Positions 42,624-64,000 of a stretch of 64,000 nucleotides of DNA are shown one piece after another. This stretch comes from Verrucomicrobiota bacterium. Its GTDB lineage: Bacteria > Verrucomicrobiota > Verrucomicrobiia > Limisphaerales > JADJPG01. The DNA is taken from positions 52,443 through 116,442 of the forward strand of contig JADJPG010000006.1 of NCBI GenBank assembly GCA_016713365.1, read 5' to 3'. The position numbers and the translations under genes are program-made. Below the pieces are notes generated by a model that searched no databases, was not told where the DNA came from, and worked only from the letters and a program-made list of their open reading frames with translations. Position 1 is the stretch's first letter, and each line of letters opens with the position of its first letter.

Positions 42624-42641
42624 CAACTCGGCGAAAAAAAT

Positions 42642-44466: not shown

Positions 44467-44486
44467 GCCTACACTCTTTATCACAG

Positions 44487-44515: not shown

Positions 44516-44583
44516 GAGTTTTACAAACGCCTCCCCTGCCCTCGCGCCCCGGCCCACCAATGGCGATGCCGGGGCGCTCCTGG

Positions 44584-44988: not shown

Positions 44989-45070
44989 AACGATTCGGGT
45001 TGGTTGGCACGGCTTGGACCGTGTTCGCCGGCGGGGAGATGGCTTCTCCCCAATTCCCGGCAAAGTATCT

Positions 45071-47643: not shown

Positions 47644-48286
47644 ATTTGAAGTCGCCCACCGCGGTCGGGAAACGGCCATTGGCCACCATGTTGGGGTTGC
47701 GCAGGAAACGAAGGTTGAGTTTGAAGTTGAAGGCTTCGGTGAAGGCTTTCTCTTGAAAGATGCCGGTGCGGATCACCTGGCCGGAAACGGTCACGAGCAC
47801 TTCGTCCTCACGGGTCGAAAGAATGTCGATCTTTGAAATCTCCGGTTTTTGCCGGAGTTGTTTGGCCCGGAACTCCACCGCTTCCCGCGTGCGTTGTTCC
47901 TGTGCCTTCTGCAGGGCGGATTTCAGGAACAGCTGGCGAAGCAGTTCCGGGTGATCGAAGTCTTTCGGGCTACGCTGGAGCAACGTCAGGGTCGCGAGTT
48001 CCGCTTGTTGCACATGCAGATCTTTCGCTTCGGCGAACTGCAGCAACGGACTGACATAGTAGGTCTGCGCCGGGTCGATGATGACGACGCGTTCCCGTTG
48101 CTTGAATTGATTGATGATGTGATAGCGATCCAGCGCGGCGACGCCCGTCACCGCCACCGCCACGAGGAACCAGAACCACGGCAGCCGATCGCGTTGCGCG
48201 AACAATTGGGTCGGGTCGAAGGCACGGCGGGGTCGGACGACCGACGTGGTGCTGGTTTGAGTCTGGCGGAGTTCAGGGGTTTCCAT
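47627..48286 (-). CDS. trbF: T4SS protein TrbF/VirB8-like
   Basis: Bitopic: RLPWFWFLVAVAVTGVAAL TM followed by a ~160-aa periplasmic domain. Sits between the VirB6-like and VirB9 genes. Confidence 0.6.
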   Translation of the reverse strand: METPELRQTQTSTTSVVRPRRAFDPTQLFAQRDRLPWFWFLVAVAVTGVAALDRYHIINQFKQRERVVIIDPAQTYYVSPLLQFAEAKDLHVQQAELATLTLLQRSPKDFDHPELLRQLFLKSALQKAQEQRTREAVEFRAKQLRQKPEISKIDILSTREDEVLVTVSGQVIRTGIFQEKAFTEAFNFKLNLRFLRNPNMVANGRFPTAVGDFKYEIIP

Positions 48287-48291
48287 GGCGA

Positions 48292-49359
48292 TTAAAAGTT
48301 CCGCCCACGAGCCTGGGCGATGAGGTCACGAACGGAGCGATCACCAGTAATGTCGTCACCGGCACGACCACGGGTGGATCTCGGCGGCAGCCCGGAACCG
48401 GCAATGATCATCGCCCCCGCACTGCCGACACCGGCGGCGGTCGACAGAGTGCTCAACGCCGCCGCCATTCCAGCCGCAGCGACGGGTGCTGATGAAACGC
48501 CGGTCGCGGATCCCACCGCCGCAGCTCCAGATGTGGTCGCCGCGGTTTGCAGAAATCCTCCCACGGCGCCCGCGATGAGTTGTCCCCCGGCGAGTGCCCC
48601 AGTGCTCAACACTTTCTGGATCACGACCGGTGCAGAGATCGTGCTGAACACAATCCAGAACGCCACCACGACGACTCCAAAGGTTGCTTGCAGCGTGTAG
48701 AAGGAAGCCGTCGGATCAAAGAAGCGCGACGAGGGATCGGTCATGAAGTCGAGCATGCCCTGGGTGATCAGCGCCGCGACCGCCCAACCCAGGGGCCAGA
48801 GCAGGACGCCGGCGATGTTCATCAGGTAACGGCTGCCCACGGACCGCAGCGGTCGAATCGCCATCAAACCAATCAACAGGGGCGAGAGCGCATACGCCGT
48901 GAACAGGATGAACTTTTGAATGAGGTAGGCCCACAACAGGAGGAGTGACGCGAACTGGCCGACCAGCCAGAGAATCCCGGTAATCAGCATCTCGACCGAG
49001 AAGGCGTTCAGGTCACTCAAAATGTCCCACCAGGATCGTTCACCGCCCGTATCCCGACGGACTTCCAGTAACTGGTTGTATTGCTGGTGAACCTGCGACG
49101 GATCAACACCGAGGCCATTGAGGATCGAGGTCTGGAGAAGTTCCTGCGCCTGGTTGCCCCACTGCGGCAGCATGACCAGCAGCGCAGTGAGCACGAACAG
49201 GCGCACCATGTGCAGCATCAGGGTCTTGGCGGAGAACCCGTGCGCCACCAGCAGAATGGTTCCGACGATGAACAGCAGGAACGCCACGAGGCGCAGCAGT
49301 TCGTGCAGTTCCGCACATTTTTGCAGGAACGTCGGAAAGAGTTGTTCGAAGGTAGCCAT
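48292..49359 (-). CDS. trbL: T4SS protein TrbL/VirB6-like
   Basis: Polytopic membrane protein with >=6 hydrophobic segments and a Gly/Ala/Ser-rich C-terminal tail. Sits directly after the TrbJ-like gene. Confidence 0.7.
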   Translation of the reverse strand: MATFEQLFPTFLQKCAELHELLRLVAFLLFIVGTILLVAHGFSAKTLMLHMVRLFVLTALLVMLPQWGNQAQELLQTSILNGLGVDPSQVHQQYNQLLEVRRDTGGERSWWDILSDLNAFSVEMLITGILWLVGQFASLLLLWAYLIQKFILFTAYALSPLLIGLMAIRPLRSVGSRYLMNIAGVLLWPLGWAVAALITQGMLDFMTDPSSRFFDPTASFYTLQATFGVVVVAFWIVFSTISAPVVIQKVLSTGALAGGQLIAGAVGGFLQTAATTSGAAAVGSATGVSSAPVAAAGMAAALSTLSTAAGVGSAGAMIIAGSGLPPRSTRGRAGDDITGDRSVRDLIAQARGRNF

Positions 49360-49383
49360 CGTCGGAAAGCTGGGAATGGCGCC

Positions 49384-50184
49384 TTACGGAGTCGGAAACG
49401 CCGTCGGCGCATTCACGAGGCGGAAGGTCTGGCCGTATTTCTGCACCGCCTCGGTGAACTCGGCGTGTTGCTGTTCCTTCTTCGCTTCGGCCTGCCGTTG
49501 CGTCTCATTGCGGTTGGCAACGTCCTGCACGAGCGCCGACGCGGTGGCTTGATTGATTTCGTAGTCGGTGTTGTTCAGTGCGGACGAGAGGCCGATGAGA
49601 ACGCCGGTCAGCTTTTGCACTTCAGCGTCGGTGGTGGCGTTCTTGAGCGCCGTCGTCGTGCGGGCGATCTCCTCCTTCAACGCGATGCGCCGCGTGGCCG
49701 CGTCGGCAGAGACGGAGAGGAAGTTGTCCGCAGTTTTCTGCACGGCTGCAACGGCGAGATAAGGCGCTTCGCGACGGGCGACCGTCGCGCCATTCGGCGT
49801 CGAAAACGTCGTGCCGATGCTGCTGAACAGTCCATTGGCGTCGTAGATCATGGCCTGCCCTGCGTCCACCGCCCCTTCGAGCGCAGTCAAAGTCTGGCCA
49901 ACTTCCGCCCGACGTAGTTCGGTCACCAGCGGTTGCACGGTATTCAGCACCACGGCTTTCGGATCACCGAACAGACTTTCGTAGTGCTTGAACTCAGTGA
50001 GTTGATCTTCGAGCGCCTTGATCTGTTGGACCTGGTGGTTGATGACCTCGACGAATTTCGCGACTTCCTGCACGGTGTTTATGACGGACTGAATCGTATT
50101 GGCCGGGTCGTAAACGACCCACTGCGCGCGCGCCGTGCTGGCAAGGCCAGCGGTCGCGAGCATTACGGTGAGGAGTTTTTTCAT
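49384..50184 (-). CDS. trbJ: T4SS protein TrbJ/VirB5-like
   Basis: Signal MKKLLTVMLATAGLASTARA, then QWVVYDPANTIQSVINTVQEVAKFVEVINHQVQQIKALEDQL gives a TrbJ N-terminal pattern in a helical protein. Confidence 0.65.
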   Translation of the reverse strand: MKKLLTVMLATAGLASTARAQWVVYDPANTIQSVINTVQEVAKFVEVINHQVQQIKALEDQLTEFKHYESLFGDPKAVVLNTVQPLVTELRRAEVGQTLTALEGAVDAGQAMIYDANGLFSSIGTTFSTPNGATVARREAPYLAVAAVQKTADNFLSVSADAATRRIALKEEIARTTTALKNATTDAEVQKLTGVLIGLSSALNNTDYEINQATASALVQDVANRNETQRQAEAKKEQQHAEFTEAVQKYGQTFRLVNAPTAFPTP

Positions 50185-50660: not shown

Positions 50661-52403
50661 TCACTTCCCCGTCAAGTCTTCATCAATGTTAACACCGCTT
50701 CGCATCGCACCGACCTGCAAATCAATCGGAGCGCTCCAGAGTCCGAACTTACTACGCGCTCTGGCTTTGATCGTCATCCGGCCGGCGACCTCGACCGGCT
50801 TGGAGTATTCGAGTGCGGACGGGGAGACCGCACCTCCCGGAGCCCGAGGGTCGGTGCCGTTCGTTGTGTAGAAGAGCCTGCCATCGAGAAAGCCCATCGA
50901 CACAGAGGAGATACCGTTCGAGGAGGCCAGTGGCTGCAAAACTGGCTTGGGATACTCCTGGCTGTCGATCCACGCCAGGCGACAAGTGACCCACTGCTTC
51001 AGCCACGATACATCCTTTTGAAACAACTCGTTTGATGGTGCGCTCCCGGGCAGCCCCGCCCACCGTGAGTGATTCCGTCCGAGCGCCGGCAAAACTCCGC
51101 TTGTGATGAAATCAATCAGCCGGACGAGATTGGTTGTCTCAAAAACGTTCGTCCGAAGTTCGCTCCATCGATCCATGTATCGCTGTAAAAAATCAGGATC
51201 TTCGAATAATCGACGAAACCAAGTGTAGTCGGGATCCTGGACACCTTCAAATCGCCACTCGTTGGTCTTCATGGCGGCCGCGAAGAAGGTGTTTCCAAAA
51301 GCATTATCCCAGTCCCATAGGGGTCCCATCGCCACCTTGCCGCCCCGATCCTTGTGCATATACTGGCTCAGGAAGTAACCATCGGCATTCCGCGACAGCT
51401 CCACCATCCAGTGAAAATCTACAAATGATTCGACATCAATGTAATTGCGATACCCGGTTTCGGCATTCCGAAAACCCAATGAGAATAATGTCTTCTCGAA
51501 ATCACCCAAATACTTGCGCACCCACTTGCTCTGAATGGCAGTTAAATCCCGTTCCTTCGGCTCCTCAAAGCGCAACAACAATTCTTGTCCCGTCAGCAAT
51601 CCCGCTTCACCCTTGGCCTCATCATCCTTCTTGAAGATGTAGCCGCCGGACAGCTCGGGTTCTTTGTCGTGCTCGGGACGCAAACGGGCGATGTTTACGC
51701 GATCATTGGACCGCTTGATTTTCTCCATCAACACGAACACACCCAAGTAGGAGTCGGACATTCTCCGGGCAGCCTCGTTGACCGTATTCGAATGCTGGAG
51801 CGGGAAGCCTGAGCCTGACAGTGCTTCCAGGACATGTCTTGTTTGTAAAGCCAGTTGAGCTGGTGAAATTAGGCCTCCTTTGAACGAGTTTGTGACGCTA
51901 AATACCTCCACAAACCGCCAGCGCACCGCGTAGCGCCCCATGCTGCGCCAAAGCTCATGCGCCAGCAGATTCCGGGAAAACGTCTTGTCCGTCACCGAGG
52001 CGTAGAGTACCCAATCCGAATCCGCCGGAAGACCAAGGAGCGAGGTTTTTCGATCCTTTCCCCGATTATCCTGCAATTCCAAGCGATAGCTCTTCTTTGG
52101 ATAGTGAAACGAACTGTTCCCACGCGCGGACAACTCCGCCGGGCCACTGGCGCCTTCATCGATTGAAAATTTCGCACCACTATCCTCCGGAAGCAGCACC
52201 GTGAGAAAGGCGGGCACACGCGAGCGATCTTGAACTGCTTTTCCGCCGGTTTGAAAAACCAAAACTGGCAGTGCTCCGGACCCACTGGGTTTTACCTCCG
52301 CCGCCGACAAAACGGCACCACCGCACGCCAACAACACGACGGCAATTGCAGAAACAATCGCCCCTTCACCGACGCTACTGAGCCACTGCCATCTCCCGTT
52401 CAT
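50661..52403 (-). CDS. CotH-family kinase-like protein with C-terminal chitobiase/hexosaminidase-type tail
   Basis: N-terminal anchor. CotH-like blocks ..NSSFHYPKKSYRLEL.., ..GGYIFKKDD.., ..YMHKDRGGKVAMGPLWDWDNAFGN... C-terminus ..LFYTTNGTDPRAPGG... Confidence 0.8.
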   Translation of the reverse strand: MNGRWQWLSSVGEGAIVSAIAVVLLACGGAVLSAAEVKPSGSGALPVLVFQTGGKAVQDRSRVPAFLTVLLPEDSGAKFSIDEGASGPAELSARGNSSFHYPKKSYRLELQDNRGKDRKTSLLGLPADSDWVLYASVTDKTFSRNLLAHELWRSMGRYAVRWRFVEVFSVTNSFKGGLISPAQLALQTRHVLEALSGSGFPLQHSNTVNEAARRMSDSYLGVFVLMEKIKRSNDRVNIARLRPEHDKEPELSGGYIFKKDDEAKGEAGLLTGQELLLRFEEPKERDLTAIQSKWVRKYLGDFEKTLFSLGFRNAETGYRNYIDVESFVDFHWMVELSRNADGYFLSQYMHKDRGGKVAMGPLWDWDNAFGNTFFAAAMKTNEWRFEGVQDPDYTWFRRLFEDPDFLQRYMDRWSELRTNVFETTNLVRLIDFITSGVLPALGRNHSRWAGLPGSAPSNELFQKDVSWLKQWVTCRLAWIDSQEYPKPVLQPLASSNGISSVSMGFLDGRLFYTTNGTDPRAPGGAVSPSALEYSKPVEVAGRMTIKARARSKFGLWSAPIDLQVGAMRSGVNIDEDLTGK

Positions 52404-52434: not shown

Positions 52435-53019
52435 TTACGGACTTTTGGTGGAACCTTTTTCAGGCAGTTTCCTAAATGGATATCTTGATCGAAAAATGTG
52501 ATAGTCCCCTAGCACCGTGTATGCTGGCCCAGAAAGCCCACTATATCGCTTGATCAAAATCGGACGGCCGTTGTTCCACCGTATTGGCCACGCCACGTTA
52601 AAGGAACCATCTGCGTTGATTTCACTACGACCAGACTCCCAAGTCATTGCACTCGCGCTAGGGTTGTTTGTTGCCGATTCAGGCAAGTCAAACGCTATAC
52701 GTAGTATTAATAGGAGCTTGGACATTTCGATGAAATCGTCTTTTATGGCACCAGGCTCCGTTTCCGCGAACCGTTGAAGGACGAGTTCAACCGTGGACGG
52801 GGTCGCATTTTGGAACATCCGGGCTGCTTCTATAGCGTTTTTCCAGTCGTTGCTGGTGTAATCCTTGGTCGATCTCCATGGTTCGACTCGTGATATTGCA
52901 TTAAACAGGGACTCTGCGGAAATGCTTGTCGAATCCGGCCCAACCTCCTGCTTGTCACAGCCGGTTACCAAGATTCCGAATAATGCGACAAAAGTGAGTA
53001 GCAGCGCTGCGTTATGCAT
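52435..53019 (-). CDS. Lipoprotein, candidate partner/immunity protein of cassette 53019-53768
   Basis: ATG 53019 overlaps the upstream TAA (TAATG). MHNAALLLTFVALFGILVTGC lipobox. AT-rich (~37% GC in line 52441). No family recognised. Confidence 0.55.
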   Translation of the reverse strand: MHNAALLLTFVALFGILVTGCDKQEVGPDSTSISAESLFNAISRVEPWRSTKDYTSNDWKNAIEAARMFQNATPSTVELVLQRFAETEPGAIKDDFIEMSKLLLILRIAFDLPESATNNPSASAMTWESGRSEINADGSFNVAWPIRWNNGRPILIKRYSGLSGPAYTVLGDYHIFRSRYPFRKLPEKGSTKSP

Positions 53020-53768
53020 TAGTTGTATGGCTCCTGCCGAACGGGCCACGTCATCTCCCCCCTGTCAGCGTTACTGAATGGTTTCTCGCAACAACAATCC
53101 CAGTTTGCGTTTGCCCAATGATATTCTAAAGCCTCCACGGGTTGCACCTTGTTCCACCAACTTGGGCGAGTCCTTGTCGCCGGAAGACCGCCCGAGCTTG
53201 CGATTGACCCCCAGTTTGCAGGATCGTCATTTGGGTCGCCAGCATCAGTTGTCCTGGCGCAGTAAAACGCAACGACGCCACGCTTTTGATCGCTCCCTTT
53301 CGAATTTGGATACTTACCATTTGCGAACTGGTCGGTATATCCATATCGCCTTGCAATGTTTGACCATGAGTCGTTCATTGTGACCGGCCACACCTCCCAA
53401 TAATGATCAGTAATTTGAACTTCGTTCTTCAAGGAACAGTATTTCACCACTTTGCTCATCTCGACTTCTTGAACGAGGTAACCAGTGCATGGAGCTGGAT
53501 TGCTAAGCTTGAAATCCCACTCTACGGTATACTTTCCACATTCACCTTTCTCCCACTTCAATTGAGTGATGACTATTTTCCCATCAGGATCAAACTTCAG
53601 CAAAGGAGCGTTTTCAGCAAACGCACAAAGGTTCTTTCCTCCCTTCTCCTCAATCGGATCTCTGTTCAACCATCTCCCCGCCGCCGGATTGTAGAACGCC
53701 CTCGCGGGCGACACGGCGATGAATAAGAACAACGTGACAGCCAATAGCGTTTGGTCGCATCTCTTCAT
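53019..53768 (-). CDS. Signal peptide + Rhs-core-tip motif + Trp/Cys-rich C-terminal domain (orphan toxin cassette 3)
   Basis: MKRCDQTLLAVTLFLFIAVSPARA / FYNPAAGRWLNRDPIEEKGGKNLCAF..FDPDGK, then a unique domain (..NWDCCCEKP..). The start overlaps the stop of the transglutaminase-like gene (ATGA). Confidence 0.7.
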   Translation of the reverse strand: MKRCDQTLLAVTLFLFIAVSPARAFYNPAAGRWLNRDPIEEKGGKNLCAFAENAPLLKFDPDGKIVITQLKWEKGECGKYTVEWDFKLSNPAPCTGYLVQEVEMSKVVKYCSLKNEVQITDHYWEVWPVTMNDSWSNIARRYGYTDQFANGKYPNSKGSDQKRGVVAFYCARTTDAGDPNDDPANWGSIASSGGLPATRTRPSWWNKVQPVEALEYHWANANWDCCCEKPFSNADRGEMTWPVRQEPYN

Positions 53769-54757
53769 AAGGTCACGACTGTTCGTGGGTTTGGGTGGTT
53801 TCGATCCGACTGCTTTGCATTGCTTCGCAAATGCTCCATGAACTCACGTTGGATGGCTGAGTGCGGTGCCAGCCGGCAAACGTGCTCTTGATTGCTGGCA
53901 GCTTCTTCGAAGCGGCCTGCGGCGAGCAGGCAATGAGTTCGCAGCGAGAGGAACACGGACAATTCCTCGACGGGACTCAGGGACGTTAAATACCGCTCGG
54001 TCTGCTCCTCCTCGGGCGACATCGGAAATGGCCAGCCCCGATAATACTCATCCTCAAACGTCGTCATCCCCTCCGTCGTCGCCTCAATGTTCAGGCGTTC
54101 GCCCGCTCCATCCCAGCGGACGAAGAGATGGTTCTTCGCCGTCACCAGCTTCAGCGGATACCCCAGCCGCCGGCCCACCGCCGCATACAACACCGGCAGG
54201 GAGGCGCACGTGCCCGTGCGCCGCGGCCCGAGCAATCCGTGCAGGAACACGTCCGCCGCCTCCGAGTAAAACGATTCGTTCGGCTCGATCCGGCCCTCCA
54301 CCGGCTGCGCCCGCTGCGGGCTGTAGCGAATGCCGAAATCCTGCTGCAACACCGTCACCAGGCAGAGCATCTTGAAATACGCCTCCGACCCGTTGAACTC
54401 CTCCGGCGCACGTCGGAACCGCGCGACATGCCGGGCCGTCTCCGCCTTCACCCGCGCGGTCATCGCGGCCAGCTCCCGTACCAGATTCGTGAAGGCCAGA
54501 TCCTCGCCCCGGGCCAACCCGCTCCCCGCCAGCAAATTCATCCGGGCAATGTCCATGCGCAGGCCATTGGGCTGTCTCAACAACGCCGCCAGTTCCGTCT
54601 CCCAGCCCATCGCCTCAACGGGCGTACCGACATTACTCTCATTGCTCAAGCGTTCTTTCCCCTTTCCAACAACCAGTGCTGCGCCAATACAGACCGTCAT
54701 TACGCAGCCGAGCACCAACCGCTTTGCGAGTTTTCGATTAAGGTCCATTGTCCTCAA
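53765..54757 (-). CDS. Membrane-anchored transglutaminase-like (SirB1/YchA-type core) protein with TPR-like tail
   Basis: TM LVLGCVMTVCIGAALVV. ..GPRRTGTCASLPVLYAAVGRRLGYPLKLVTAKNHLFVRWDG.. matches the Cys-containing transglutaminase-core2 pattern (compare GIPISL..LGLPL..PGHFLLRW in YchA). Confidence 0.7.
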   Translation of the reverse strand: MRTMDLNRKLAKRLVLGCVMTVCIGAALVVGKGKERLSNESNVGTPVEAMGWETELAALLRQPNGLRMDIARMNLLAGSGLARGEDLAFTNLVRELAAMTARVKAETARHVARFRRAPEEFNGSEAYFKMLCLVTVLQQDFGIRYSPQRAQPVEGRIEPNESFYSEAADVFLHGLLGPRRTGTCASLPVLYAAVGRRLGYPLKLVTAKNHLFVRWDGAGERLNIEATTEGMTTFEDEYYRGWPFPMSPEEEQTERYLTSLSPVEELSVFLSLRTHCLLAAGRFEEAASNQEHVCRLAPHSAIQREFMEHLRSNAKQSDRNHPNPRTVVTL

Positions 54758-54846
54758 ATATGTTTCACGTGGTGACCTTGAAATCTGAAGCGATGGCAGC
54801 CGCGCATCCGGACTATCTGACTAAGGGGTGTCAGAGACCTTTTCCC

Positions 54847-55266
54847 TTACCTGGTTCTCGAAGCATAGGTCACACCTATTGAGTGCCAGTTACCACCCTC
54901 GTCCTTTGTGAAATAGACGCAGTTCCGTCTTGTCCAAAACTTGGCGGCGACGACATGCCCCGGAAACGCCATATCTATACGCTCTACCTCGCCGTCAATA
55001 TCAGGAATTCGGCTCATCACATTCGACAGACTGTTGCGTTCACTCGCCGGTAATTGATTCCACTCGATTGAGTTTGTCGGGAAGAGGACGGCTTTGCCTT
55101 CCCCATACGGCAACAAGCGCCGGTGCGGTGGCGCATTCAATTCCACCACTTTTCGTTCGATTTCTGCATCAAGAAGACAAGACCTGCTGATGAAGACAAC
55201 CACCAGCGCGCAAGCCACCAGCGCCGCCATCAAGGCTACATTTTTTCCTGCCCGGCTAGAATCCAC
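54847..55266 (-). CDS. TM-anchored small protein, candidate partner/immunity protein of cassette 2
   Basis: MDSSRAGKNVALMAALVACALVVVFIS anchor. Overlaps the 3' end of the upstream toxin gene by 11 nt. No family recognised. Confidence 0.5.
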   Translation of the reverse strand: MDSSRAGKNVALMAALVACALVVVFISRSCLLDAEIERKVVELNAPPHRRLLPYGEGKAVLFPTNSIEWNQLPASERNSLSNVMSRIPDIDGEVERIDMAFPGHVVAAKFWTRRNCVYFTKDEGGNWHSIGVTYASRTR

Positions 55267-55999
55267 AAGCCTTTGCCCTCCTATCGGCGGCCGCTTCTAA
55301 AGCTGCCGCCGCCTGCCAAGCCAGTTGCCCCAGAGAAGCGAGATTACTTACCGCAAATTGATAGTCGATTGATTCATGTGGCAAATCGAACACATGAATG
55401 AACTCATCGGCGGTTTCCATGGTCAAAAGTGCGAAACGTCGCTCTGCCGCGACATAATCCAACAACGCGCTCATACATCCCCGGCTAACGCAACGCTCCT
55501 TTACCCCGTTCAATACCGCTTCGTCGTGATTGGCGTAAGCCAGCCCATTATCAGCGTGCCTCCGTTCATGTTCTCTTGTTGTGTACGAATATCCGGCCAT
55601 CAGATTGTCAGGATCATGGCCGGTCGCGTAGGTAATGGTGATATTTGCCCGGCACGATACTGAGGTGATTTTCCGACACAGTCCGAGATTGCATCCCACA
55701 ACCTGGAAGGAACAGCCCACATCAGTTGGAATCGTGAACTCCGTTACACCGAAGTATCCCGGAACCGACCCCGTTCTTTCCGTCAAATTTAATTCTACCA
55801 AGCCTCGAAAATCTGCTTTACATGGCATTTGATTTCCGACCGCCGCATACAGCGCTTTACCCCCGCGCTCTTCAATTGGATCGCGATTCAACCACCGGCC
55901 AGCGCTGGGGTTGTAGTACGCCTGCGCCAGAGGCGCGAAGGTCAGCCAAGCAACGAGTGCCAAAGCGATGACGCCGTAGTTAAACCGTTCAGTTTTCAC
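55256..55999 (-). CDS. Signal peptide + Rhs-core-tip motif + HExxH domain (orphan toxin cassette 2)
   Basis: GTG 55999: (M)KTERFNYGVIALALVAWLTFAPLAQA / YYNPSAGRWLNRDPIEERGGKALYA..ADFRGL, then ..TTREHERRHADNG... As assembled the frame stays open upstream to ATG 56131 (and 56224). Confidence 0.65.
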   Translation of the reverse strand: MKTERFNYGVIALALVAWLTFAPLAQAYYNPSAGRWLNRDPIEERGGKALYAAVGNQMPCKADFRGLVELNLTERTGSVPGYFGVTEFTIPTDVGCSFQVVGCNLGLCRKITSVSCRANITITYATGHDPDNLMAGYSYTTREHERRHADNGLAYANHDEAVLNGVKERCVSRGCMSALLDYVAAERRFALLTMETADEFIHVFDLPHESIDYQFAVSNLASLGQLAWQAAAALEAAADRRAKACGF

Positions 56000-56131
56000 G
56001 ACTGGATATGATTTTCCGCGTTCGCCTTCAACCACCGGCCTGAGTTCGGATTGTAGAACGCCTTGGCCAGCGGCGTGCCAGTCCACGCGATGACACAGCA
56101 AGAGAGCTCTCAGCAGCCATTTCTTATTCAT
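55996..56131 (-). pseudogene. Truncated 'ghost' leader: signal peptide + AFYNPNSGRWL then stop
   Basis: ATG 56131 (ATGA with the upstream stop) gives MNKKWLLRALLLC. A +1 shift near 56092 gives ..CCVIAWTGTPLAKAFYNPNSGRWLKANAENHIQS-stop. That stop overlaps GTG 55999 (GTGA). Confidence 0.45.
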
Positions 56132-56589
56132 TTGTTCTCCTTCAGCTTTTCCACAGTCTGATCCTTGCCCACGCCTGAAACATCGTCTTGCGCGATTCCG
56201 TTTTCTGAAAATGATACCTGCCAAAATGGTCCACCGAGTCCCCCACCGTATCTTAACTTAACAAAAGCGTTCCTATTCGTTGTTTGCATAGAAACCGATG
56301 GTATCATCCGCTCACTAGGAGTCCGTTCTTGGTATGTCCGGAAATCAGGATACCGCCGCCTGAGCCGTTCGGTTGCTGCCCGGTGTAGATCCAAAAGCGT
56401 AAAGGTGCTTGAGGCTGTTGAGACATACATTCTTGCTATCAATAGTTCTACTCCGTTGGTTGGGTTGGCGTGCATTGGATTTCCGCAAGCAAAGAAAATC
56501 GGACCGAGCAAAAAGACGAAAGCTACACAAGAGCTTAGATTCGAAGTTACACGTCCCACGTCGTTACGTTTCTTATTGAGTATTCGCAC
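56128..56589 (-). CDS. Lipoprotein-like small protein, candidate partner/immunity protein of cassette 1
   Basis: ..CVAFVFLLGPIFFACGNP.. (lipobox-like). Overlaps the upstream toxin gene by 17 nt. ~42% GC. No family recognised. Confidence 0.5.
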   Translation of the reverse strand: MRILNKKRNDVGRVTSNLSSCVAFVFLLGPIFFACGNPMHANPTNGVELLIARMYVSTASSTFTLLDLHRAATERLRRRYPDFRTYQERTPSERMIPSVSMQTTNRNAFVKLRYGGGLGGPFWQVSFSENGIAQDDVSGVGKDQTVEKLKENK

Positions 56590-57283
56590 ATTTCTCCTTT
56601 TCTAATTGCAAATTGGGCAGGAGAGTTCCGAAGAGTTCGACGCTCAATGGACCTATCTCTGCGCAACTTTGCTCGTTACCATAGTCCCCACAATCCCAGA
56701 GCCTGTTGTCAAGTTTCGCCCATGTGAAATAGATGTTCGAGATCAATGCGACCAAGCCATCGTAACAATTTGCTCGTTGTTTCGACATGCAGGTGTCCGT
56801 GAAAGATCCAATTTCACCAATCATGCTCGTCCAATGTGATCTTCCGATCTCAACATGGCGTAGTTCATGGTTACGAATTTTGTAGGGATCATCCTGATCA
56901 TTAAGACTCCACCAATAGTCGGCTGTGGCGTGCCCATTCGCCCATACCACCCAACAACATCGCTTGGGCATTGCAACCCGCGAAGTTACAGGACCCCATA
57001 TCAGCGTAGTTAATCCAAGATTTCCCCCTTCTGGAGCCCGCGCTCCAAGATCCTGGGATGTAAATGAGAAATCACTAGCGAGAAGCCCCTTCTTATCAAT
57101 CTTAGTCTGACTGTTATTTGAGACCCACGCCGAAAGATTGATGCCCCCTCTTTCCGCAATCGGATCGCGGTTCAGCCACCGGCCCGAGTTCGGGTTGTAG
57201 TACGCCTGCGCTAGCGGTGCGAATGCCAGCCACAGCAGCATCGCTGCCGCAGGCAACGTTCTGATTTTGAATTTGCGTTTCAT
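56573..57283 (-). CDS. Signal peptide + Rhs-core-tip motif + HExxH domain (orphan toxin cassette 1)
   Basis: MKRKFKIRTLPAAAMLLWLAFAPLAQA / YYNPNSGRWLNRDPIAERGGINLSAW..IDKKGL, then ..YKIRNHELRHVEIGRSHW... Confidence 0.7.
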   Translation of the reverse strand: MKRKFKIRTLPAAAMLLWLAFAPLAQAYYNPNSGRWLNRDPIAERGGINLSAWVSNNSQTKIDKKGLLASDFSFTSQDLGARAPEGGNLGLTTLIWGPVTSRVAMPKRCCWVVWANGHATADYWWSLNDQDDPYKIRNHELRHVEIGRSHWTSMIGEIGSFTDTCMSKQRANCYDGLVALISNIYFTWAKLDNRLWDCGDYGNEQSCAEIGPLSVELFGTLLPNLQLEKEKCANTQ

Positions 57284-57386
57284 ATCAAAAGTATAACTTT
57301 CAATGGCACAGGCGCGGGTGGCCGACTCACTCTGGCGCGGCCTGAGGCGCGCTAGATTCTTTCACACCTTTTGGCGGAACAGCCGA

Positions 57387-58094
57387 TTACTCATCCAATT
57401 CGATCAGTTGGGGAAGCTTCAGCGGAGCAGCTTCGACCATTTCCACACGGTTCGTGTCGATCACAGTCACAAATCTGGCTCTCAATTCTGTGACGCCGCT
57501 TCCAATTGCCCTGGTGTGCAGAGTTTTTTCAAGAACGTCTCCGGGTTGAATGACGGATGGGACTTCAATATGAGCTTCGGTTTTAGTCCCTCTACGAATC
57601 AACGCCCCCGACGGACTTTGACCGGACGCGAGAGCGCTAACCGGTAAAGAAAGTTTACGCGTGCCATCCTTGGTAGAAACGAGTGATCCAACGCCGAGGA
57701 GAACCACGGCTCGATCTGTTTGATTGCTGATGGAAAGGCGAGTTCCAGCATCGGTTTGAACAAGTCTAAGTTTGATTGGCAGACGTGAACTCGGGTCCAG
57801 AAGATTTCGTGTGGACAGATCCCTAATGACAGTTCCAAATGTCTCCTGGCCAGCAACGCCATCGACAACCAACCCTCTGCTTCGTTGATATGATTGCACA
57901 TCGTCAAATCCAAGCAGACTCAAGTAAGCCAGGATTTTTTCGCCTTCCTTGCTGGTGTATTTTTCATATGGACGATGACAGGTGATCTGCACCGCATTGG
58001 TGGCAACAACATTTGCATCTGTCTGCGCAGACCCAGCCAAAGAGATGCTGAATGCGCAAACGACGACAGCCAAAGTCCTCGATAGCGGTTTCAT
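57387..58094 (-). CDS. Secreted protein with peptidoglycan-binding-like motif, candidate immunity protein of the Rhs toxin
   Basis: ATG 58094 overlaps the Rhs stop (ATGA). Signal MKPLSRTLAVVVCAFSISLAGSAQ. LLGFDDVQSYQRSRGLVVDGVAGQETF resembles a PG_binding_1 half-motif. Confidence 0.55.
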   Translation of the reverse strand: MKPLSRTLAVVVCAFSISLAGSAQTDANVVATNAVQITCHRPYEKYTSKEGEKILAYLSLLGFDDVQSYQRSRGLVVDGVAGQETFGTVIRDLSTRNLLDPSSRLPIKLRLVQTDAGTRLSISNQTDRAVVLLGVGSLVSTKDGTRKLSLPVSALASGQSPSGALIRRGTKTEAHIEVPSVIQPGDVLEKTLHTRAIGSGVTELRARFVTVIDTNRVEMVEAAPLKLPQLIELDE

Positions 58095-61000
58095 GGGCAG
58101 ACTCCGTTAAATCCACATGCCCGCTCTGCCGCAAACGCATCATCGTTGTGCGCCCCACCGCCAACGTCATCGTTGCACTCATGGAAGAGTTCATGGATGA
58201 TTGAAGCCCCGAGACACCATCGTCCTTCTCGACACGTCCGAGCGCACATCCACACTTGCCAGCGGCCATCATTTCCGTAGGTGTAGCCGTATGTCTTACC
58301 GTCGCACGTTGCAGAATTAGGGTCGTTGTCGATTGAGACGGTAAGACTATTCAGACGGTCCAGCAGGTTATTGCATCGTGACGTCCTTCCAAAAAAATTA
58401 CGACACCGGCCACACGGCAAATTGATCGCCTTGCGCAGTATGTCCAGGGCGCGGTTGATGTTTGCCTGACAAGCGGAAACTTCATCGGGAGTCAAAGCAC
58501 TTTGTGTGAGGCCAAGTCGGTCCACTCGGTTGATTGCGTCGTTGGAAACGAAAGCATATCCGGGCTTTTTCGACTCCCGCAGCAATGTTGCTGGGCTGCT
58601 AGACCCTTCGAGCAAACGAGCCCGCAGGAACATTTCATCTCCCAACGGGTCTCTATTTAGCCACCTCCCCGCATTGGGATTGAGATACCGATAGCCGTAG
58701 TACGCATAGTCCGTCTCGTCATCCACGACCTTGGAGCTGAACCGCACCGGGTTCACCGTGGCCATCGTGTCGCTGGCGCGAATCGTCTGCCCAAACGGAT
58801 CATACTCATACCGCGCGGAGGCGCTGCCGGTCCTGCCATCCACCAGCGCCATCACGTTCCCGTTCCCGTCGTAGGCCGCGAAATGGCTGCCCGCCAGGGA
58901 ACCGGAGTGTTGCCGGAACGCAATCAATCCACCCACGCCACCCGCGCCCTGCATCGAGCCGCTGAGGTCCAATCCCCACAGAAAGGAACGGATGATGGCG
59001 GCATTGGTGCCATTGAAGGCCCCGAGCAGATTCCAGCCATCATACAGGAATTTCTCGTGCAGCACGCGCGTCCACGCGCTGCCCGTCCAGTTGCTCACCA
59101 CCTTGCTGTAACGCCTCCCCTGCGAGTCATACGCGAACTGAAGTGACTTGCGGCTGCCGCTCGGCCCGCTGGAATGGCTCGTCATGTCAATGAGCCGATT
59201 TTCGGCATCCCATTTGTTCGTCCAGCGTCCGTCGCTCGTCAGGTTGCCGTCGAGATCGTAGGTGTAAGCCTCCGCCGTTTTCGTCAGGAACAGGTTGCCT
59301 GTATTCGTCTGGTTCGTGCCCGTGAGTGACGCGATGTTCGTCACCGATTGCCAGAGCGCGGCGGAAGCGTTGTTCGCCGAGAGTTCCTTCCAAAAGTATT
59401 CACCCTTCCGGTAGGCGGACTGGCTGTTCACCGTCACGCTGGCATTGGCATTCGCGATGCCGAGCACATTGAGATACGCTGGCACATCGCGCGAGGTGTA
59501 TTGATTGAGGCTGTTCGCCGTGTAACTCGCGGAACGCAGTGCGCCGCCGGCGTCGTCACCGCCCGCCTTCGTGCTGGTGCGGTTGCCGATATCGTCGAAC
59601 GCGTATTCGTATTGCTGGCCGGCCACGGGGGTCCAATCGCTCCAATACCGCTTGCCACTGACCACCTGACCGAGCTTGTCGTATTCGTAAATCCAGAAGG
59701 AACCATCATCCAAGTTCACGCGCGTGCGCTGGTTGGCGTCGTTGTAGGCGTAATCGAACGACACGGCGGATTCGCCCGAGGCCCCCGGGGTGGAGGTGAT
59801 GTTTTGCAGGCGATTGAGGTAATCGTAGGTCTTCGCGGTCGTCATACGCGAGGTGGTGTTCGACCGGTAGGTAACCTGCGAGATCAACGGGGAGTTGGCA
59901 AGGTAGGAATAGCCTCCTTGATACGTGCCGTCCGTGACGTTGGTGATGCGTGAGGCGCCGTCGAACATGAACGAATGACTGAGGAGTGAAGTGTTGGTGG
60001 CATACCAGGCGTGATTGGTCCGGCGCTGGTATTGATCGTAGGTGAAGCGCAGGTTCTGCCCGATCATCTCGCCGCTGCTGTTCGTTTCGCCCAGCAACTG
60101 CCCGGTGGCATTGTAGGCGAGGAACCGGCTGCCAGAACCATCGACGATGTTCGTGCTGCGTCCAAGTCGGTCGAAGTTGTTCGTCACCGCTGGAGTGGTG
60201 TCTGAATAAGTGGTGGCGAAGATCTCGCCCACGCTGTTCGTGTGATAGGTAGTAACCGTCCCGCGCGCCCATGTGCGGGTGCGCAGCCTGCCTCCGGGGG
60301 TGTAAGAGTAGAATGGTCCCTTGCCGTCGTCATAGACCTTGTTCGTCAGGAAGCCGCGATAACCATCGTATCGCCAGGCCGTGGTGGCTTTGCCGGAATC
60401 GGTGGCGAAGGTCTTCCACGTAATCATGTTGGTCCGGCGCCCCTGCGGATCATACGCGTATTGCACCGGGTAATTGCGGCTGCCGTACGTCTTCTTGAGC
60501 TCACCGGTTGGATGATACTCGTTGGTAACGCTGGTGCCATCCGGCAGCACGGTGCGGCTCACGCGTCCGGCCCAATCATGCTCGTAAGTCGTCGTTTGCG
60601 CGGAAGCACCCTTCCCCGGCGGCGGCGTGGTCGTGGCCACGACCCGATCCGCATCGTTATACGTATAGAACGTGGTGCCGTTGCGGGCGTCGGTGGCGGC
60701 GTATTGGCGGCCGTGTTCGTCGTAGAAGTAGTCCACTCGACTGAGTTGCGTTCCAGCAGAGTTTTTGCGGGTTACGTTTTGCAGCAGGCCATTGGCGTAA
60801 TGGCTGATGCTCTGGGAGCCATCGGACGCGGTGTTCGTGCTATAGCGGGTTCCTCCACCGGCATACTTGGTCCGGCTTTGGTTCGTGAGCCCGTAACGGC
60901 TATTCCACGAAATCAGGCCATCGACGCTGGTGTCTGCCATGCCCAGCAGGTTGGATGTGGCAATGTTATTGGTGGACCAGACATAAGTGGCGACACGCTG

Positions 61001-63688
61001 GACATTGGCCGAGCCATTGTTGACGACAGAACGCACGGTCTGCTGGATGCGGTCGGTGCCGTTGGTGCTGACGATGCCGTCGCGATTGACGTCGGTGGCA
61101 ACAATGGATTGCTCCCCTTTTGCGTTGTAAGCATAGAGCGTGGTGACTCCATCCGGATCAACCGTTTTCACCAATTGACCCTTGATGTTGTAGAAAGATT
61201 CCCGCGTGGCACCGTCGGAATAGACCGTCTTGTAATTCCGGCCCAGCATGTCATTATACGTCTTGCTCCATTCGGAGGTGTCGCTGCCGGCGGCATCGAG
61301 TTTGATTTCCTTGGAGTAAAGACGCCAGATGCCGCCATCCTGCTCAGTGCCGTACTCGTAGCGGAGAGGATGCACGGCGGTTCCAGTGATTTTCGCCAGC
61401 TGTCCATCGCGATAATACAATTCAACGCGCGTGCTGCCGTCTGGATACGTCGTCGTCCGTAGCTTCTGGTAGTTGGTGATCGTCTCAGAGTAACTGGTTA
61501 CCGCACCGAGTGCATTCGTCGATGCGACCATTCGGCCTGTAGTGTCGTAACTTGCCGACTGTTGCACAATCTGTGTTCCATTTGATCCAATACGAATGGT
61601 TCTCACAATGTTCCCAGCAGCATCGAGTACGTTTGTCGTTGTAATTCCGTTCTGCTTCGTTCCTGTCTTGCGCTTCATGTTATCGCGTAAATAGGTAATC
61701 ACGGTGCCCTCGCGATTCGTGACCGTCTCTGCACCGCAGCAACCAGAATCCTTCCATGAGAATGTTCCGTCCATGTACGTAATTTTTCGTGGACGGTTGT
61801 ACGCATCATAGTCGCTGTAGAATTCCACAAAATTTGTTATTCCGGAAATGATGTCAGTCTCTGTCACGGTCACGAGCTGACCAAATCTCCCGAGAATCGA
61901 AACCAGTCGGCTACCATCAACAATGTTTGTCCTGTAGCCATCAGGTTGTCCTTTCATGACAACATTCGTGACAAACGCTTCTCCTCCAGCATTGGTATGG
62001 TAGGTGTACTGATACATCTCCATCACACCATTGGCATGCTCAACGCTCAACAACCGCGCTTTGTTTACACCGTTCGAATAGTACTTATATGTTCTGACTA
62101 GATTGCTCGAGTTGTTCCACTCAGCACCAGCAACGGCACAGTAGATCTCGCGCCGTTCCATCGGAAGATAGAGTTTGTATGTTCTGGCAATTTCGCGACC
62201 TTCAACGTACTCCACTACGCATCTCGGCTCAAAAGCTCTTTGTCTCCCTCGATCGGTTGCACCGGGCACCGCGTTGGAGCCGTAACGCAACTCCATGCTT
62301 CGTGATGTCGCAGGGTTGGTTGATAGCGCGTAATTCAAGAACGCCGAGTAGGTGTTGGTGCGCAGACCGTTCGTATGATATTCATGGAAGACCCAACCGC
62401 CATCCGCGTACTCTGCCTGCATTAAGTGTCCCTTGCTGCGGTAAGCGGTATTGGTATGGTAGACAAAGGAATTCGTTCTGCGATCGGTTCCGACTCCAAT
62501 TACATCGCGAATCATTGTTTCGCCAAACGCATTACTCTGGTATGTTTTGATGCTGCAGGTCACTAACCCATTGGTTCCGCGTGTGTCCAAAGTAACGATC
62601 CTTAGGTCGTTGGTGAATTCAGTGGACTTCTGCTGAATTCTTAAACCGCCGCCATGCACAAGTTCCCAGCCGTTGGTCTTCCACTCGTAGTTGGAAACCA
62701 CGCCGTCTCCGTCAGTAATGGACAATTTATTGCTCGTCAGACAACTCGTGTCCGGATTCGCTATGACTATTGTTGCCAGTGGCGCTCCGGAGAACGTGTA
62801 GAGACCATTTACATCCTTATTGGTGCTGCATACAGTGGAAGAGTAGATCTCGATCGAATAGCTGTAAGGTGCGTTGGACACGACGTTGGCATACCCCTCG
62901 GGTGCCCTGATTTGACGAATTGCATTGCCAACGCGGATGACTTCGCAGTCCGGATTGTTAGTACCGTGAGCATAGCGAAAGTCCAGGACCTGTGGGGTGC
63001 ACAGCAGGTTTGTTGGGTATTTCTCGTGTAGAGACAACGCACCGATCGATTTGCCGAATCCGTATCGCCCTAACCTGACGGTTGCTGCCACACTTCCAAC
63101 TTCGGTGCCAGTTGACCCCTGACTTTCCTCATCCTCAGGGGAACAATTGTCAGCACAGTCTTTCTTTACTGTTATTGCGCCTGTTTTGCGTTTTCCTCCC
63201 GAACCGGTAGCTACAACTGTGTATGAACCTGCTTGAACAGAATTAGGATCACTGACCTGTATAGTTGCATAAAATACACCCATATTATCTTTCGAAGCGC
63301 CAATGATAGCTATCCCACCGCCAACACTGGTTCCGTTTTGACCCTCCAACGACCATGTGACCGGCCCGAAGAACTCGTTACAGTACTGACCATTCACCCA
63401 CGTGTTGGTGGAATACGCATAGACACTCGCTCCAATTTGCGTCACGCAAGGAAGGTGCATGATTGCGTGACAGACATTGCCATCACCCCTATCACCACCG
63501 AGATGAACAACATCGCAGCCGCTCTGACATCCGGCAACGTTCTCGTCCTGCGAGACCCCTTGCGAGCAGAGCGGCCAAGAGACAACAGCCAAGAGAAGCC
63601 ACACAAGTTGCCATGTGAAGTGGCTATGGGCACAGGAAACCGAATGAGTAGAGAGGATTCCGATGGTATTGTTTCCCTGTGATTGCAT
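58091..63688 (-). CDS. Rhs/YD-repeat protein with signal peptide and C-terminal HExxH toxin domain
   Basis: 1865 aa, uninterrupted. N-terminal hydrophobic leader ..WQLVWLLLAVVSWPL... Dozens of YD-type repeats (..YxYDxxGR/N..). Core end ..YGYRYLNPNAGRWLNRDPLGDE..VDRLGL (58640-58699). Cys-rich tail with ..IIHELFHECNDD... Confidence 0.95.
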   Translation of the reverse strand: MQSQGNNTIGILSTHSVSCAHSHFTWQLVWLLLAVVSWPLCSQGVSQDENVAGCQSGCDVVHLGGDRGDGNVCHAIMHLPCVTQIGASVYAYSTNTWVNGQYCNEFFGPVTWSLEGQNGTSVGGGIAIIGASKDNMGVFYATIQVSDPNSVQAGSYTVVATGSGGKRKTGAITVKKDCADNCSPEDEESQGSTGTEVGSVAATVRLGRYGFGKSIGALSLHEKYPTNLLCTPQVLDFRYAHGTNNPDCEVIRVGNAIRQIRAPEGYANVVSNAPYSYSIEIYSSTVCSTNKDVNGLYTFSGAPLATIVIANPDTSCLTSNKLSITDGDGVVSNYEWKTNGWELVHGGGLRIQQKSTEFTNDLRIVTLDTRGTNGLVTCSIKTYQSNAFGETMIRDVIGVGTDRRTNSFVYHTNTAYRSKGHLMQAEYADGGWVFHEYHTNGLRTNTYSAFLNYALSTNPATSRSMELRYGSNAVPGATDRGRQRAFEPRCVVEYVEGREIARTYKLYLPMERREIYCAVAGAEWNNSSNLVRTYKYYSNGVNKARLLSVEHANGVMEMYQYTYHTNAGGEAFVTNVVMKGQPDGYRTNIVDGSRLVSILGRFGQLVTVTETDIISGITNFVEFYSDYDAYNRPRKITYMDGTFSWKDSGCCGAETVTNREGTVITYLRDNMKRKTGTKQNGITTTNVLDAAGNIVRTIRIGSNGTQIVQQSASYDTTGRMVASTNALGAVTSYSETITNYQKLRTTTYPDGSTRVELYYRDGQLAKITGTAVHPLRYEYGTEQDGGIWRLYSKEIKLDAAGSDTSEWSKTYNDMLGRNYKTVYSDGATRESFYNIKGQLVKTVDPDGVTTLYAYNAKGEQSIVATDVNRDGIVSTNGTDRIQQTVRSVVNNGSANVQRVATYVWSTNNIATSNLLGMADTSVDGLISWNSRYGLTNQSRTKYAGGGTRYSTNTASDGSQSISHYANGLLQNVTRKNSAGTQLSRVDYFYDEHGRQYAATDARNGTTFYTYNDADRVVATTTPPPGKGASAQTTTYEHDWAGRVSRTVLPDGTSVTNEYHPTGELKKTYGSRNYPVQYAYDPQGRRTNMITWKTFATDSGKATTAWRYDGYRGFLTNKVYDDGKGPFYSYTPGGRLRTRTWARGTVTTYHTNSVGEIFATTYSDTTPAVTNNFDRLGRSTNIVDGSGSRFLAYNATGQLLGETNSSGEMIGQNLRFTYDQYQRRTNHAWYATNTSLLSHSFMFDGASRITNVTDGTYQGGYSYLANSPLISQVTYRSNTTSRMTTAKTYDYLNRLQNITSTPGASGESAVSFDYAYNDANQRTRVNLDDGSFWIYEYDKLGQVVSGKRYWSDWTPVAGQQYEYAFDDIGNRTSTKAGGDDAGGALRSASYTANSLNQYTSRDVPAYLNVLGIANANASVTVNSQSAYRKGEYFWKELSANNASAALWQSVTNIASLTGTNQTNTGNLFLTKTAEAYTYDLDGNLTSDGRWTNKWDAENRLIDMTSHSSGPSGSRKSLQFAYDSQGRRYSKVVSNWTGSAWTRVLHEKFLYDGWNLLGAFNGTNAAIIRSFLWGLDLSGSMQGAGGVGGLIAFRQHSGSLAGSHFAAYDGNGNVMALVDGRTGSASARYEYDPFGQTIRASDTMATVNPVRFSSKVVDDETDYAYYGYRYLNPNAGRWLNRDPLGDEMFLRARLLEGSSSPATLLRESKKPGYAFVSNDAINRVDRLGLTQSALTPDEVSACQANINRALDILRKAINLPCGRCRNFFGRTSRCNNLLDRLNSLTVSIDNDPNSATCDGKTYGYTYGNDGRWQVWMCARTCREGRWCLGASIIHELFHECNDDVGGGAHNDDAFAAERACGFNGVCP

Positions 63689-63726: not shown

Positions 63727-64000
63727 CTATTTTAGCGGGGTGAAGCTGACCAAGCCGGGGCCGTTCCCGCTTGCGGAAGTTGAATTGTAAACCTGCCAGT
63801 CGGTTTCTCCGGAATCCAGGCCGCCATTGCCGTTGATGTCCTCCAAATAGTCCGCTACCGCGTCACTCTCCGTGTTCACCGGGACGCCGCTCGCGTTCAA
63901 ACCGATGTAATGAAATCCAATATCGACCGTGGAATTGGTCTCACGCAACTGGTTAGTCGTCGTGGTAAAGTGGTAAAGTCCTGATAGATCCGCAGTGCGG
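63727..64000 (-). CDS. C-terminal fragment of a large secreted protein (N-terminus beyond window edge)
   Basis: The frame is open to nt 64000: ..YHFTTTTNQLRETNSTVDIGFHYIGLNASG..ADYLEDINGNGGLDSGETDW.. (Ca-binding thrombospondin-type-3-like DxDxDG motif), ..VSFTPLK-stop. Confidence 0.5.
   Translation of the reverse strand, partial: RTADLSGLYHFTTTTNQLRETNSTVDIGFHYIGLNASGVPVNTESDAVADYLEDINGNGGLDSGETDWQVYNSTSASGNGPGLVSFTPLK

Follow-up and report, generated by a model that had tools for sequence, protein, structure and literature searches.

Classic orphan Rhs C-terminal toxin/immunity modules have neither a start codon nor an export signal and become active only after recombination; in Enterobacteria, long stretches of them are identical in nucleotide sequence to the main rhs gene (PMC3150448, PMC3967940). 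What, then, are three short genes that follow a full-length rhs gene in the genome of a Verrucomicrobiota bacterium and that have both a start codon of their own and a signal peptide-like leader? The genes lie within a 64,000-nucleotide stretch of DNA (assembly GCA_016713365.1, contig JADJPG010000006.1, positions 52,443 to 116,442 of the forward strand), which we call the window and number from its first nucleotide (nt). They are best read, on sequence grounds, as members of a large, shell-less family of Rhs-derived polymorphic toxins of the Planctomycetes-Verrucomicrobia-Chlamydiae superphylum, and they are probably autonomous toxins exported by the Sec pathway, whose constant Rhs tip is handled by a transglutaminase-like partner protein.

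Three short genes join a leader to the Rhs tip

The three cassettes, all on the reverse strand, encode proteins of 236 residues (cassette 1, 56573..57283), 247 residues counted from a GTG (cassette 2, 55256..55999) and 249 residues (cassette 3, 53019..53768); cassettes 1 and 3 start with ATG. Their leaders of 24-27 residues, at 57203-57283, 55919-55999 and 53697-53768, read MKRKFKIRTLPAAAMLLWLAFAPLAQA/YYNP, VKTERFNYGVIALALVAWLTFAPLAQA/YYNP and MKRCDQTLLAVTLFLFIAVSPARA/FYNP (slash, predicted cleavage site), and all three have a basic n-region, a hydrophobic core (10-mer Kyte-Doolittle value of 2.2-3.1) and Ala at positions -3 and -1. The tip follows immediately, at 57083-57202, 55799-55918 and 53577-53696. 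The NCBIfam model of the Rhs-associated core (TIGR03696), which has 76 positions, matches the cassettes at positions 37-76 only, from the residue right after AxA, with scores of 37.9 bits for cassette 1, 36.8 for cassette 3 and 25.7 for cassette 2 (cut-off 32.5). None of the three proteins has a match to RHS_repeat or to the YD shell, and the tip begins 24-27 residues from the N-terminus. A sequence-only reading of this DNA had proposed signal peptides with an AxA site abutting the tip motif, which is borne out for all three genes, and had placed the motif [FY]YNPxxGRWLNRDPIxE[RK]GG at 57143-57202, 55859-55918 and 53637-53696, which is exact. The genes do look as if each were translated on its own into a Sec-targeted protein of tip and toxin, which supports the earlier suggestion of independently exported small toxins.

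The same architecture is widespread. About 20 proteins of 143-316 residues, found by a protein search with cassette 1, share leader and tip and have unrelated C-termini; leader and tip are often nearly identical among them (LLLWLAFAPLAQA/FYNPSTGRWLNRDP), and in one related contig (L005) an Rhs fragment is followed by a run of six such cassettes. We then built a profile from 18 leader-and-tip modules, searched it against 1.84 billion cluster representatives, and used the best 150 matches, nearly all of which are 66-340 residues long and align from residue 1-10. The sequence-only reading had proposed a survey of relatives for this architecture, and the same N-terminal module is indeed found in at least 140 distinct 50%-identity clusters.

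Among the 125 members in which the tip pattern was located 15-30 residues from the N-terminus, the leaders are 15-30 residues long and differ widely in sequence, while Ala is present at -1 in 112 and at -3 in 110. Properties kept while the sequence drifts are what selection for export predicts. The predicted cleavage sites have the form AxA/[FYH]Y and are not lipoboxes. Eight of the 125 have Cys rather than Ala at -1 (..AQC/FYNP, ..GWC/FYNP; P0049, P0074, P0104, P0123, P0129, P0130, P0141 and P0147); this Cys is preceded by H, Q, W or R, hence no lipobox is formed.

In a taxon scan that took one genome per species and comprised 80 loci, the tip variant was found overwhelmingly in Verrucomicrobiota, Lentisphaerota and Kiritimatiellia, with some cases in Planctomycetota. 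These loci contain 40 tips in long Rhs frames, 37 leaderless orphans that keep ...YYGYR upstream, and 24-28 leader-type cassettes; by the rule used for the leaders, none of the 37 leaderless orphan tips scored as signal peptide-like, which, together with the frequent Ala at -1 in the family, speaks against the leaders being due to chance. About 20 classic leaderless orphan cassettes are gathered in one chromosome region of Lentisphaerae bacterium WC36 (CP085689.1; L030, L075), where ~40-120 residues of the core remain in each (...FKFSSEYAEKETGLIYYNYR/YYNP) and the partner that comes next has a hydrophobic N-terminus. Four contigs with typical Verrucomicrobia-type leader-and-tip arrays (L019, L023, L029, L045) are titled as metagenome-assembled genomes of 'uncultured Bifidobacterium/Bifidobacteriaceae', which looks like a binning or naming error.

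The tip is conserved as a peptide

In a sequence search against solved structures, the tip was the only part of the cassettes to be matched, and it aligned with the extreme C-terminus of Rhs, TcC and teneurin-like cores (PDB 8uy4, 4igl, 6h6e). Like the plug of these proteins, it has the motif YYxPxxGRW/FLxxDPxG-x18-DPxGL, with the same spacing and the conserved aspartates. The known plug lies buried within a shell that exceeds 1000 residues, and the plug acts as a protease that cleaves off the toxin held inside (PMC8636562; PDB 8uy4, 4igl, 6h6e). In Photorhabdus Rhs1, where the C-terminal plug comprises ~95 residues, the protein is cleaved behind two DPLGL motifs, a step that depends on the aspartate of the second one (PMC8636562). 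Unlike the known plug, the cassettes keep the last 40 residues only, fused straight to a signal peptide and without a shell. Residues D40, R39, G66, Y29 and P31 are invariant in leader-type tips, P41, D63, W36 and L37 are at least 90% conserved, and the D-22-DxxG spacing (23 between the aspartates) is kept by 129 of 139 leader proteins and by 38 of 42 full-length Rhs proteins from the same phyla.

Within the window, the residues that the tips share are encoded mostly by different codons. Comparison of cassette 1 with the Rhs tip gives 2 identical, 10 synonymous and 5 non-synonymous codons, and this synonymous divergence argues that the peptide is under selection. Overall, the Rhs tip and the cassette tips are identical at 32-33 of 51 nt (63-65%), with a longest exact run of 5-8 nt, so that at present this Rhs could not make use of the cassettes for recombination. 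The tip has nonetheless been a site of exchange, as homology with a related species (L001), which covers the transglutaminase-like gene, the leader and the tip of cassette 3, ends just after that tip at 53640 and, for the Rhs gene, at 58639; GC content, too, drops in the cassettes.

These observations bear on a first alternative, namely that the cassettes are silent orphan Rhs C-terminal toxin/immunity modules, which form a recombination reservoir for the upstream Rhs and whose leaders are incidental or serve to keep the immunity genes transcribed. As in the classic orphans, each cassette is a tip-and-toxin piece followed by a partner gene, arrayed after a full-length rhs gene on the same strand with its junction at the end of the core; the tip is a known exchange junction, at which interspecies homology stops; GC content is lower in the cassettes (0.47-0.53, versus 0.60-0.66 in the Rhs core and the transglutaminase-like gene); a decayed leader-and-tip remnant indicates turnover; and classic orphan arrays occur in the same phyla (L030/L075). 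Unlike the classic orphans, however, the cassettes have their own start and signal peptide, properties that are kept over at least 140 divergent clusters despite the divergence of the leaders, and most family members are not beside an Rhs shell. The tips are too dissimilar for homologous exchange with the Rhs, which leaves the role of recombination donors suggested by the sequence-only reading weakly founded, and a reservoir would leave the dedicated, conserved companion gene described below unexplained. We regard this alternative as very improbable.

The remnant lies between partner gene 1 and cassette 2 (55996..56131, reverse strand). It reads MNKKWLLRALLL, followed by a 1-nt frameshift, CVIAWTGTPLAKA/FYNPNSGRWL and then unrelated residues, and is what is left of a fourth leader and tip. 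Its ATG overlaps the stop codon of partner 1 (ATGA), its old-frame stop codon overlaps the GTG of cassette 2 (GTGA), and because of the frameshift its ATG frame runs into cassette 2. Read-through from this ATG may yield a 291-residue product with two hydrophobic segments. The remnant is, as judged from its sequence, a mark of past exchange.

A transglutaminase-fold companion gene is linked to the cassettes

The sequence-only reading described the genes of the row correctly but overlooked the remnant and a gene at 53765..54748 (reverse strand), which encodes a membrane protein of 327 residues from its ATG and whose stop codon overlaps the start of cassette 3 as ATGA. This companion protein matches Transglut_core2 (PF13369) with 35.3 bits (cut-off 23.5). 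It has an N-terminal transmembrane anchor with a strongly basic cytoplasmic side that obeys the positive-inside rule, and it ends in a TPR tail, for which a profile matched TPR chains in the PDB with E values down to 2e-9. Against the solved structures, the single sequence had no match and the profile matched TPR proteins only. Among the homologues, the motifs GTC and HLF.RW, which contribute the Cys and the His, are invariant and N.[ED]A is conserved. This pattern is that of a papain-like Cys-His-acid site, and the companion is apparently an active, if still putative, enzyme.

Companion homologues are present in 10 of 14 independent leader-type genome loci, the window being an eleventh case, and one further locus (L005) has a faint Transglut_core2 match at its cut end. 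In the other genome loci scanned, none was found except in L020, which is too short to class. The companion lies directly upstream of a leader-and-tip gene in 7 of the 10 loci, and in all three cases examined when further leader-type proteins were picked regardless of context. The linkage also holds in the reciprocal direction. When metagenome contigs were scanned with the companion alignment alone, 66 loci had a complete gene and at least 200 nt of downstream sequence, and in 54 of these a leader-and-tip gene starts within -40 to +120 nt of the companion stop, with the 4-nt overlap seen in the window in 24 of the 54.

Clustering of all reading frames in ~90 loci revealed no third conserved gene within ±4 kb, and YD-shell similarity is nearby in only 3 of the 19 loci with at least 5 kb of flank. 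Where Rhs sequence is found upstream in related loci (L005, L023, L029, L045), it consists of 5'-truncated fragments without a signal. From the scarcity of shells and the lack of a third gene, the unit therefore consists of two genes and a variable partner and is independent of a neighboring shell, so that the earlier framing of the cassettes as orphans of an Rhs operon was too narrow.

The same data bear on a second alternative, in which the tip is a docking handle by which the exported small proteins would join an Rhs shell or another carrier in trans, the transglutaminase-like protein loading them and one shell deploying many toxins. The tip does derive from a plug that sits inside a shell, nuclease cargo with cytoplasmic-type immunity (see below) needs a delivery vehicle, and a Sec-type Rhs and a conserved, secreted protein of 1009 residues lie just upstream in the window. 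Against this stand the rarity of shell sequence near the units, the truncated and signal-less state of the Rhs pieces in related loci, the lack of a third conserved gene, and the fact that a complete Rhs has its plug position already filled by its own tip. We judge docking in trans to be distinctly improbable.

A third alternative accepts Sec export of the small proteins but holds that the tip is no target of the transglutaminase-like protein, which would have another role in the envelope, such as self-protection or cell-wall remodelling, or would be a mere conserved 5' flank of toxin and immunity swaps. The evidence for linkage is indeed positional only, the nucleotide block conserved with L001 spans the whole transglutaminase-like gene together with leader and tip, and the extra cassettes in arrays (1 and 2 here) have no copy of their own. 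Yet a protein that is kept beside toxins with unrelated C-termini most simply contacts the only part they share, TPR motifs bind peptides, neither the Cys nor the His varies, and coupled synthesis is suggested by how often the 4-nt overlap occurs. On balance we consider a companion unrelated to the tip unlikely.

Putative toxin domains and partner genes

The C-terminal part of the family members is diverse, and a Pfam match was obtained there for about 11 of 139. The matches are to Tox-HNH-EHHH, phospholipase A2, YkuD, Peptidase_M76, Prok-JAB and DUF6973, which are typical toxin domains. Homologue searches with the toxin parts of cassettes 2 and 3 found only themselves. HExxH occurs in three of the four C-terminal domains of the window, namely those of the Rhs, cassette 1 (HELRH) and cassette 2 (HERRH); DUF922, a zinc-metallopeptidase type, scores 12.9 bits for cassette 1 and 22.4 bits for cassette 2, both below its cut-off of 27 bits. 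The toxins of these two cassettes are weakly related to each other (24% identity over 83 residues, E 0.003), so the complete divergence after the tip claimed in the sequence-only reading does not hold, although the C-termini do differ. No family could be assigned to the toxin of cassette 3. Each of the three cassette toxins contains seven Cys; the C-termini of the family have ~4% Cys and the four domains of the window 4-8%, which fits folding outside the cytoplasm. Cys-richness was considered as a mark of the leader type and rejected, as leaderless orphans are equally Cys-rich.

In the window, a partner gene on the same strand comes after each toxin gene, and the overlapping junctions reported earlier are present. 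Partner 1 (153 residues, 56128..56589) starts with a GTG preceded by an AAGGAG Shine-Dalgarno sequence, overlaps cassette 1 by 17 nt and has a hydrophobic N-terminus that ends in ..IFFAC. Partner 2 (139 residues, 54847..55266) overlaps cassette 2 by 11 nt and has an N-terminal transmembrane-like segment. Partner 3 (194 residues, 52435..53019) starts at the ATG of a TAATG junction with cassette 3 and has a lipoprotein-type leader (..ILVTG/C). The partner of the Rhs (235 residues, 57387..58094), whose junction with the rhs gene is an ATGA overlap, bears a signal peptide of the cleavable type and matches PG_binding_1 weakly. Every partner in the window thus bears a cleavable signal, lipobox or membrane anchor, and envelope-type partners are present as the sequence-only reading held, but they are not special to the leader architecture: by a crude hydrophobicity rule, uncalibrated on known cytoplasmic proteins, a hydrophobic N-terminus is found in these phyla in 77% of the partners that follow leader-type cassettes, in 89% of those behind leaderless orphans and in 70% of those behind full-length Rhs genes. 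Envelope targeting of the partner as a peculiarity of leader-type cassettes was rejected on account of these similar fractions. In the family member with an HNH domain (L097), the partner has no hydrophobic N-terminus and is thus of the cytoplasmic type, so that some of the cargo would act in a cytoplasm, namely that of a target.

A model for the leader-and-tip toxins

In the model that we favor, the core unit would be a gene for a membrane-anchored, periplasmic transglutaminase-fold/TPR protein, followed by a gene for a Sec signal peptide, the 40-residue Rhs tip and a variable toxin, and then by the gene of a cognate partner with a putative immunity function. In the window, cassette 3 and the transglutaminase-like gene upstream of it would represent this canonical unit, and cassettes 1 and 2 would be extra copies. 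Each cassette would be translated from its own start and exported by Sec, and signal peptidase I would cut at AxA to leave a mature protein that starts with [FY]YNP. The tip, which would comprise one YD-like hairpin and a DPxxx-18-DxxG[L] aspartyl autoprotease motif and is the sole part common to all the toxins, would be recognized by the transglutaminase/TPR protein at the periplasmic face of the inner membrane. The toxin would then be freed at DxxG[L], either by the aspartates of the tip with the companion as a scaffold or by the Cys-His site of the companion. We favor self-cleavage on a scaffold because both aspartates are strictly conserved, and cleavage by the companion is a possible second route because its Cys and His are invariant. 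The partners would shield the producer from within its envelope or, where the cargo is a nuclease, its cytoplasm, and pairs of toxin and immunity genes would be swapped by recombination at the tip.

Several points weigh against this model. We infer translation, export, cleavage, toxicity, immunity, the role of the companion, and the routes of exit and of entry into a target from sequence, and the signal peptides were called by a simple sequence rule rather than by SignalP. The start of cassette 2 is ambiguous: gene callers on four near-identical assemblies took an in-frame ATG at 56131, which gives 291 residues. (A near-identical relative of the cassette 2 protein, P0009, has an ATG start and an intact leader.) Three of the 14 leader-type genome loci have no companion in the sequence available, 12 of the 66 companion loci have no leader-and-tip gene downstream, and only the sequence pattern identifies the third catalytic residue of the companion (E or D). 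The four toxin domains of the window all score below the threshold of any curated family and have next to no homologues among 5.8 billion proteins. The AlphaFold models give no support to the idea that 40 residues form an autoprotease without a shell: for cassette 1, the predicted local distance difference test (pLDDT) score was 42 for the sequence alone and 55 with an alignment of 139 sequences, too poor for a fold search, and the model is confident only in the leader helix (pLDDT 94) and the first hairpin (~75). Finally, nuclease cargo implies a delivery step, and the two-gene unit offers no obvious means of passage through the outer membrane or of import.

A more far-reaching form of the model, though less likely than not, is plausible enough to be put forward tentatively. 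Here the tip, freed from the shell, may have become an N-terminal sorting and maturation tag that is read by a dedicated, membrane-bound transglutaminase-fold/TPR enzyme, the two forming a Sec-dependent pathway specific to Verrucomicrobia-type bacteria that would serve many unrelated toxins including nucleases, and the 40-residue tip may be the smallest part of the Rhs aspartyl protease that can still cleave itself.

Comparison with known toxin systems

In composition, the closest systems described so far are Sec-dependent RHS toxins of Verrucomicrobia, Bacteroidetes and others, in which an N-terminal transglutaminase domain, inactive through loss of its catalytic residues, is fused to the RHS repeats that follow it (Zhang et al. 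2012, PMC3482391). Unlike in those proteins, the transglutaminase-like domain in the window is encoded by a separate gene, keeps its Cys and His and has a TPR tail, and the toxin is without repeats. In organization, the nearest analogue is the MafA/MafB/MafI system. This Sec-dependent polymorphic toxin system of Neisseria, also a diderm, has a toxin that carries a signal peptide of its own, a brief constant region near the N-terminus (DUF1020) and a variable C-terminal toxin domain, with an adjacent immunity gene, spare cassettes downstream, and a gene for an accessory envelope protein, the lipoprotein MafA, directly upstream. The cassettes differ from it in that their constant region is an Rhs tip with an autoprotease motif and their accessory is a transglutaminase-fold protein. 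The polymorphic SitA toxins of Myxococcus are small, Sec-exported lipoproteins that are passed on by TraAB outer-membrane exchange. With these the leader-type proteins share a conserved N-terminal part, multiple copies per genome and cognate immunity genes, which are putative here, but they have AxA sites rather than lipoboxes. The sequence-only reading did not recognize the architecture as a described system, and our searches agree: no description of a signal peptide fused to an Rhs tip, or of its pairing with a transglutaminase-like gene, was found in full-text literature searches, whose coverage is incomplete, or in the 2012 survey of polymorphic toxins. The leader-and-tip family is apparently undescribed.

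The rhs gene and its genomic neighborhood

The rhs gene that heads the row (58091..63688, reverse strand) encodes 1865 residues with an N-terminal hydrophobic signal or anchor, followed by a YD shell (PF05593, E 1.2e-16; also matched by NF041261 and TIGR01643). A look-up of the exact protein found none on record. Its match to TIGR03696 is full-length (51.6 bits, residues 1629-1727). The tip, YLNPNAGRWLNRDPLGDE...VDRLGL (58508-58687), has a 20-residue insertion between the two Asp motifs, where MFLRARLLEGSSSPATLLRESKKPG replaces GGxNL, such that the aspartates are 43 apart, compared with the canonical 23 in the cassettes. A subtype of the leader-type proteins (P0033, P0035, P0038, P0067, P0087) is set apart by comparable insertions, such as GEPGFQ... 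and then GRWxSRDP for a second time. The C-terminal domain of 138 residues (58094-58507) contains 11 Cys and HELFHE.

The 1009-residue signal-peptide protein upstream (63727-64000, continuing in L093 at 1339-4368) ends 39 nt upstream of the Rhs start and has no Pfam match. Homologues with 30-32% identity are present in three other Verrucomicrobia loci (L052, L059, L088), and in one of them (L059) the homologous gene immediately precedes a full-length Rhs, which points to a conserved accessory protein of Rhs. Past the end of the window, on the upstream side of the Rhs, there is a TraG-like P-loop gene (L093). Between the Rhs partner and cassette 1, a gap of 103 nt contains a 9-bp GC-rich inverted repeat (57331-57356), which is not a terminator of the toxin row because its T-run is on the opposite strand; a scan for promoters and terminators gave the same counts as shuffled sequence. 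At the other end, 31 nt downstream of partner 3, follows a gene (50661-52403) for a CotH-kinase-family protein of 580 residues with Fn3_assoc and a lipoprotein-like leader, a 61-residue piece of which (65% identity) is found downstream of the toxin cassettes in the related species (L001, L002, L004).

The row is embedded in a region that resembles a conjugative element. On its downstream side, at 35757-50184, are genes for a DUF4141/type IV secretion protein (TrbJ/VirB5-like, 49384-50184), a CagX/VirB9-like protein (46744-47679), a TrbI/VirB10-like protein (45644-46747), a WYL/WCX regulator (43405-44490), a SNF2/methyltransferase protein of 1390 residues (38330-42502) and an integrase (35757-37184). 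A link between the cassettes and these type IV secretion genes was considered and is unlikely, as related units occur among housekeeping genes.

Implications

Rhs toxins are understood as cargo sealed in a large shell, with the tip serving as plug and release protease. A large family that has dispensed with the shell, and that keeps only the tip with a signal peptide and a conserved partner resembling an enzyme, shows the tip to have an independent function, and its 40 residues define a minimal fragment for direct tests of Rhs self-cleavage. The family opens a catalogue of well over 100 uncharacterized putative toxin and immunity domains. It also points to an interbacterial toxin pathway in phyla that are mostly without well-studied delivery machines, namely Verrucomicrobiota, including Akkermansiaceae-type sequences, Lentisphaerota and Kiritimatiellia; should the tip prove to be a tag that is read by its companion enzyme, that pathway would include an export or import route that is not yet described.

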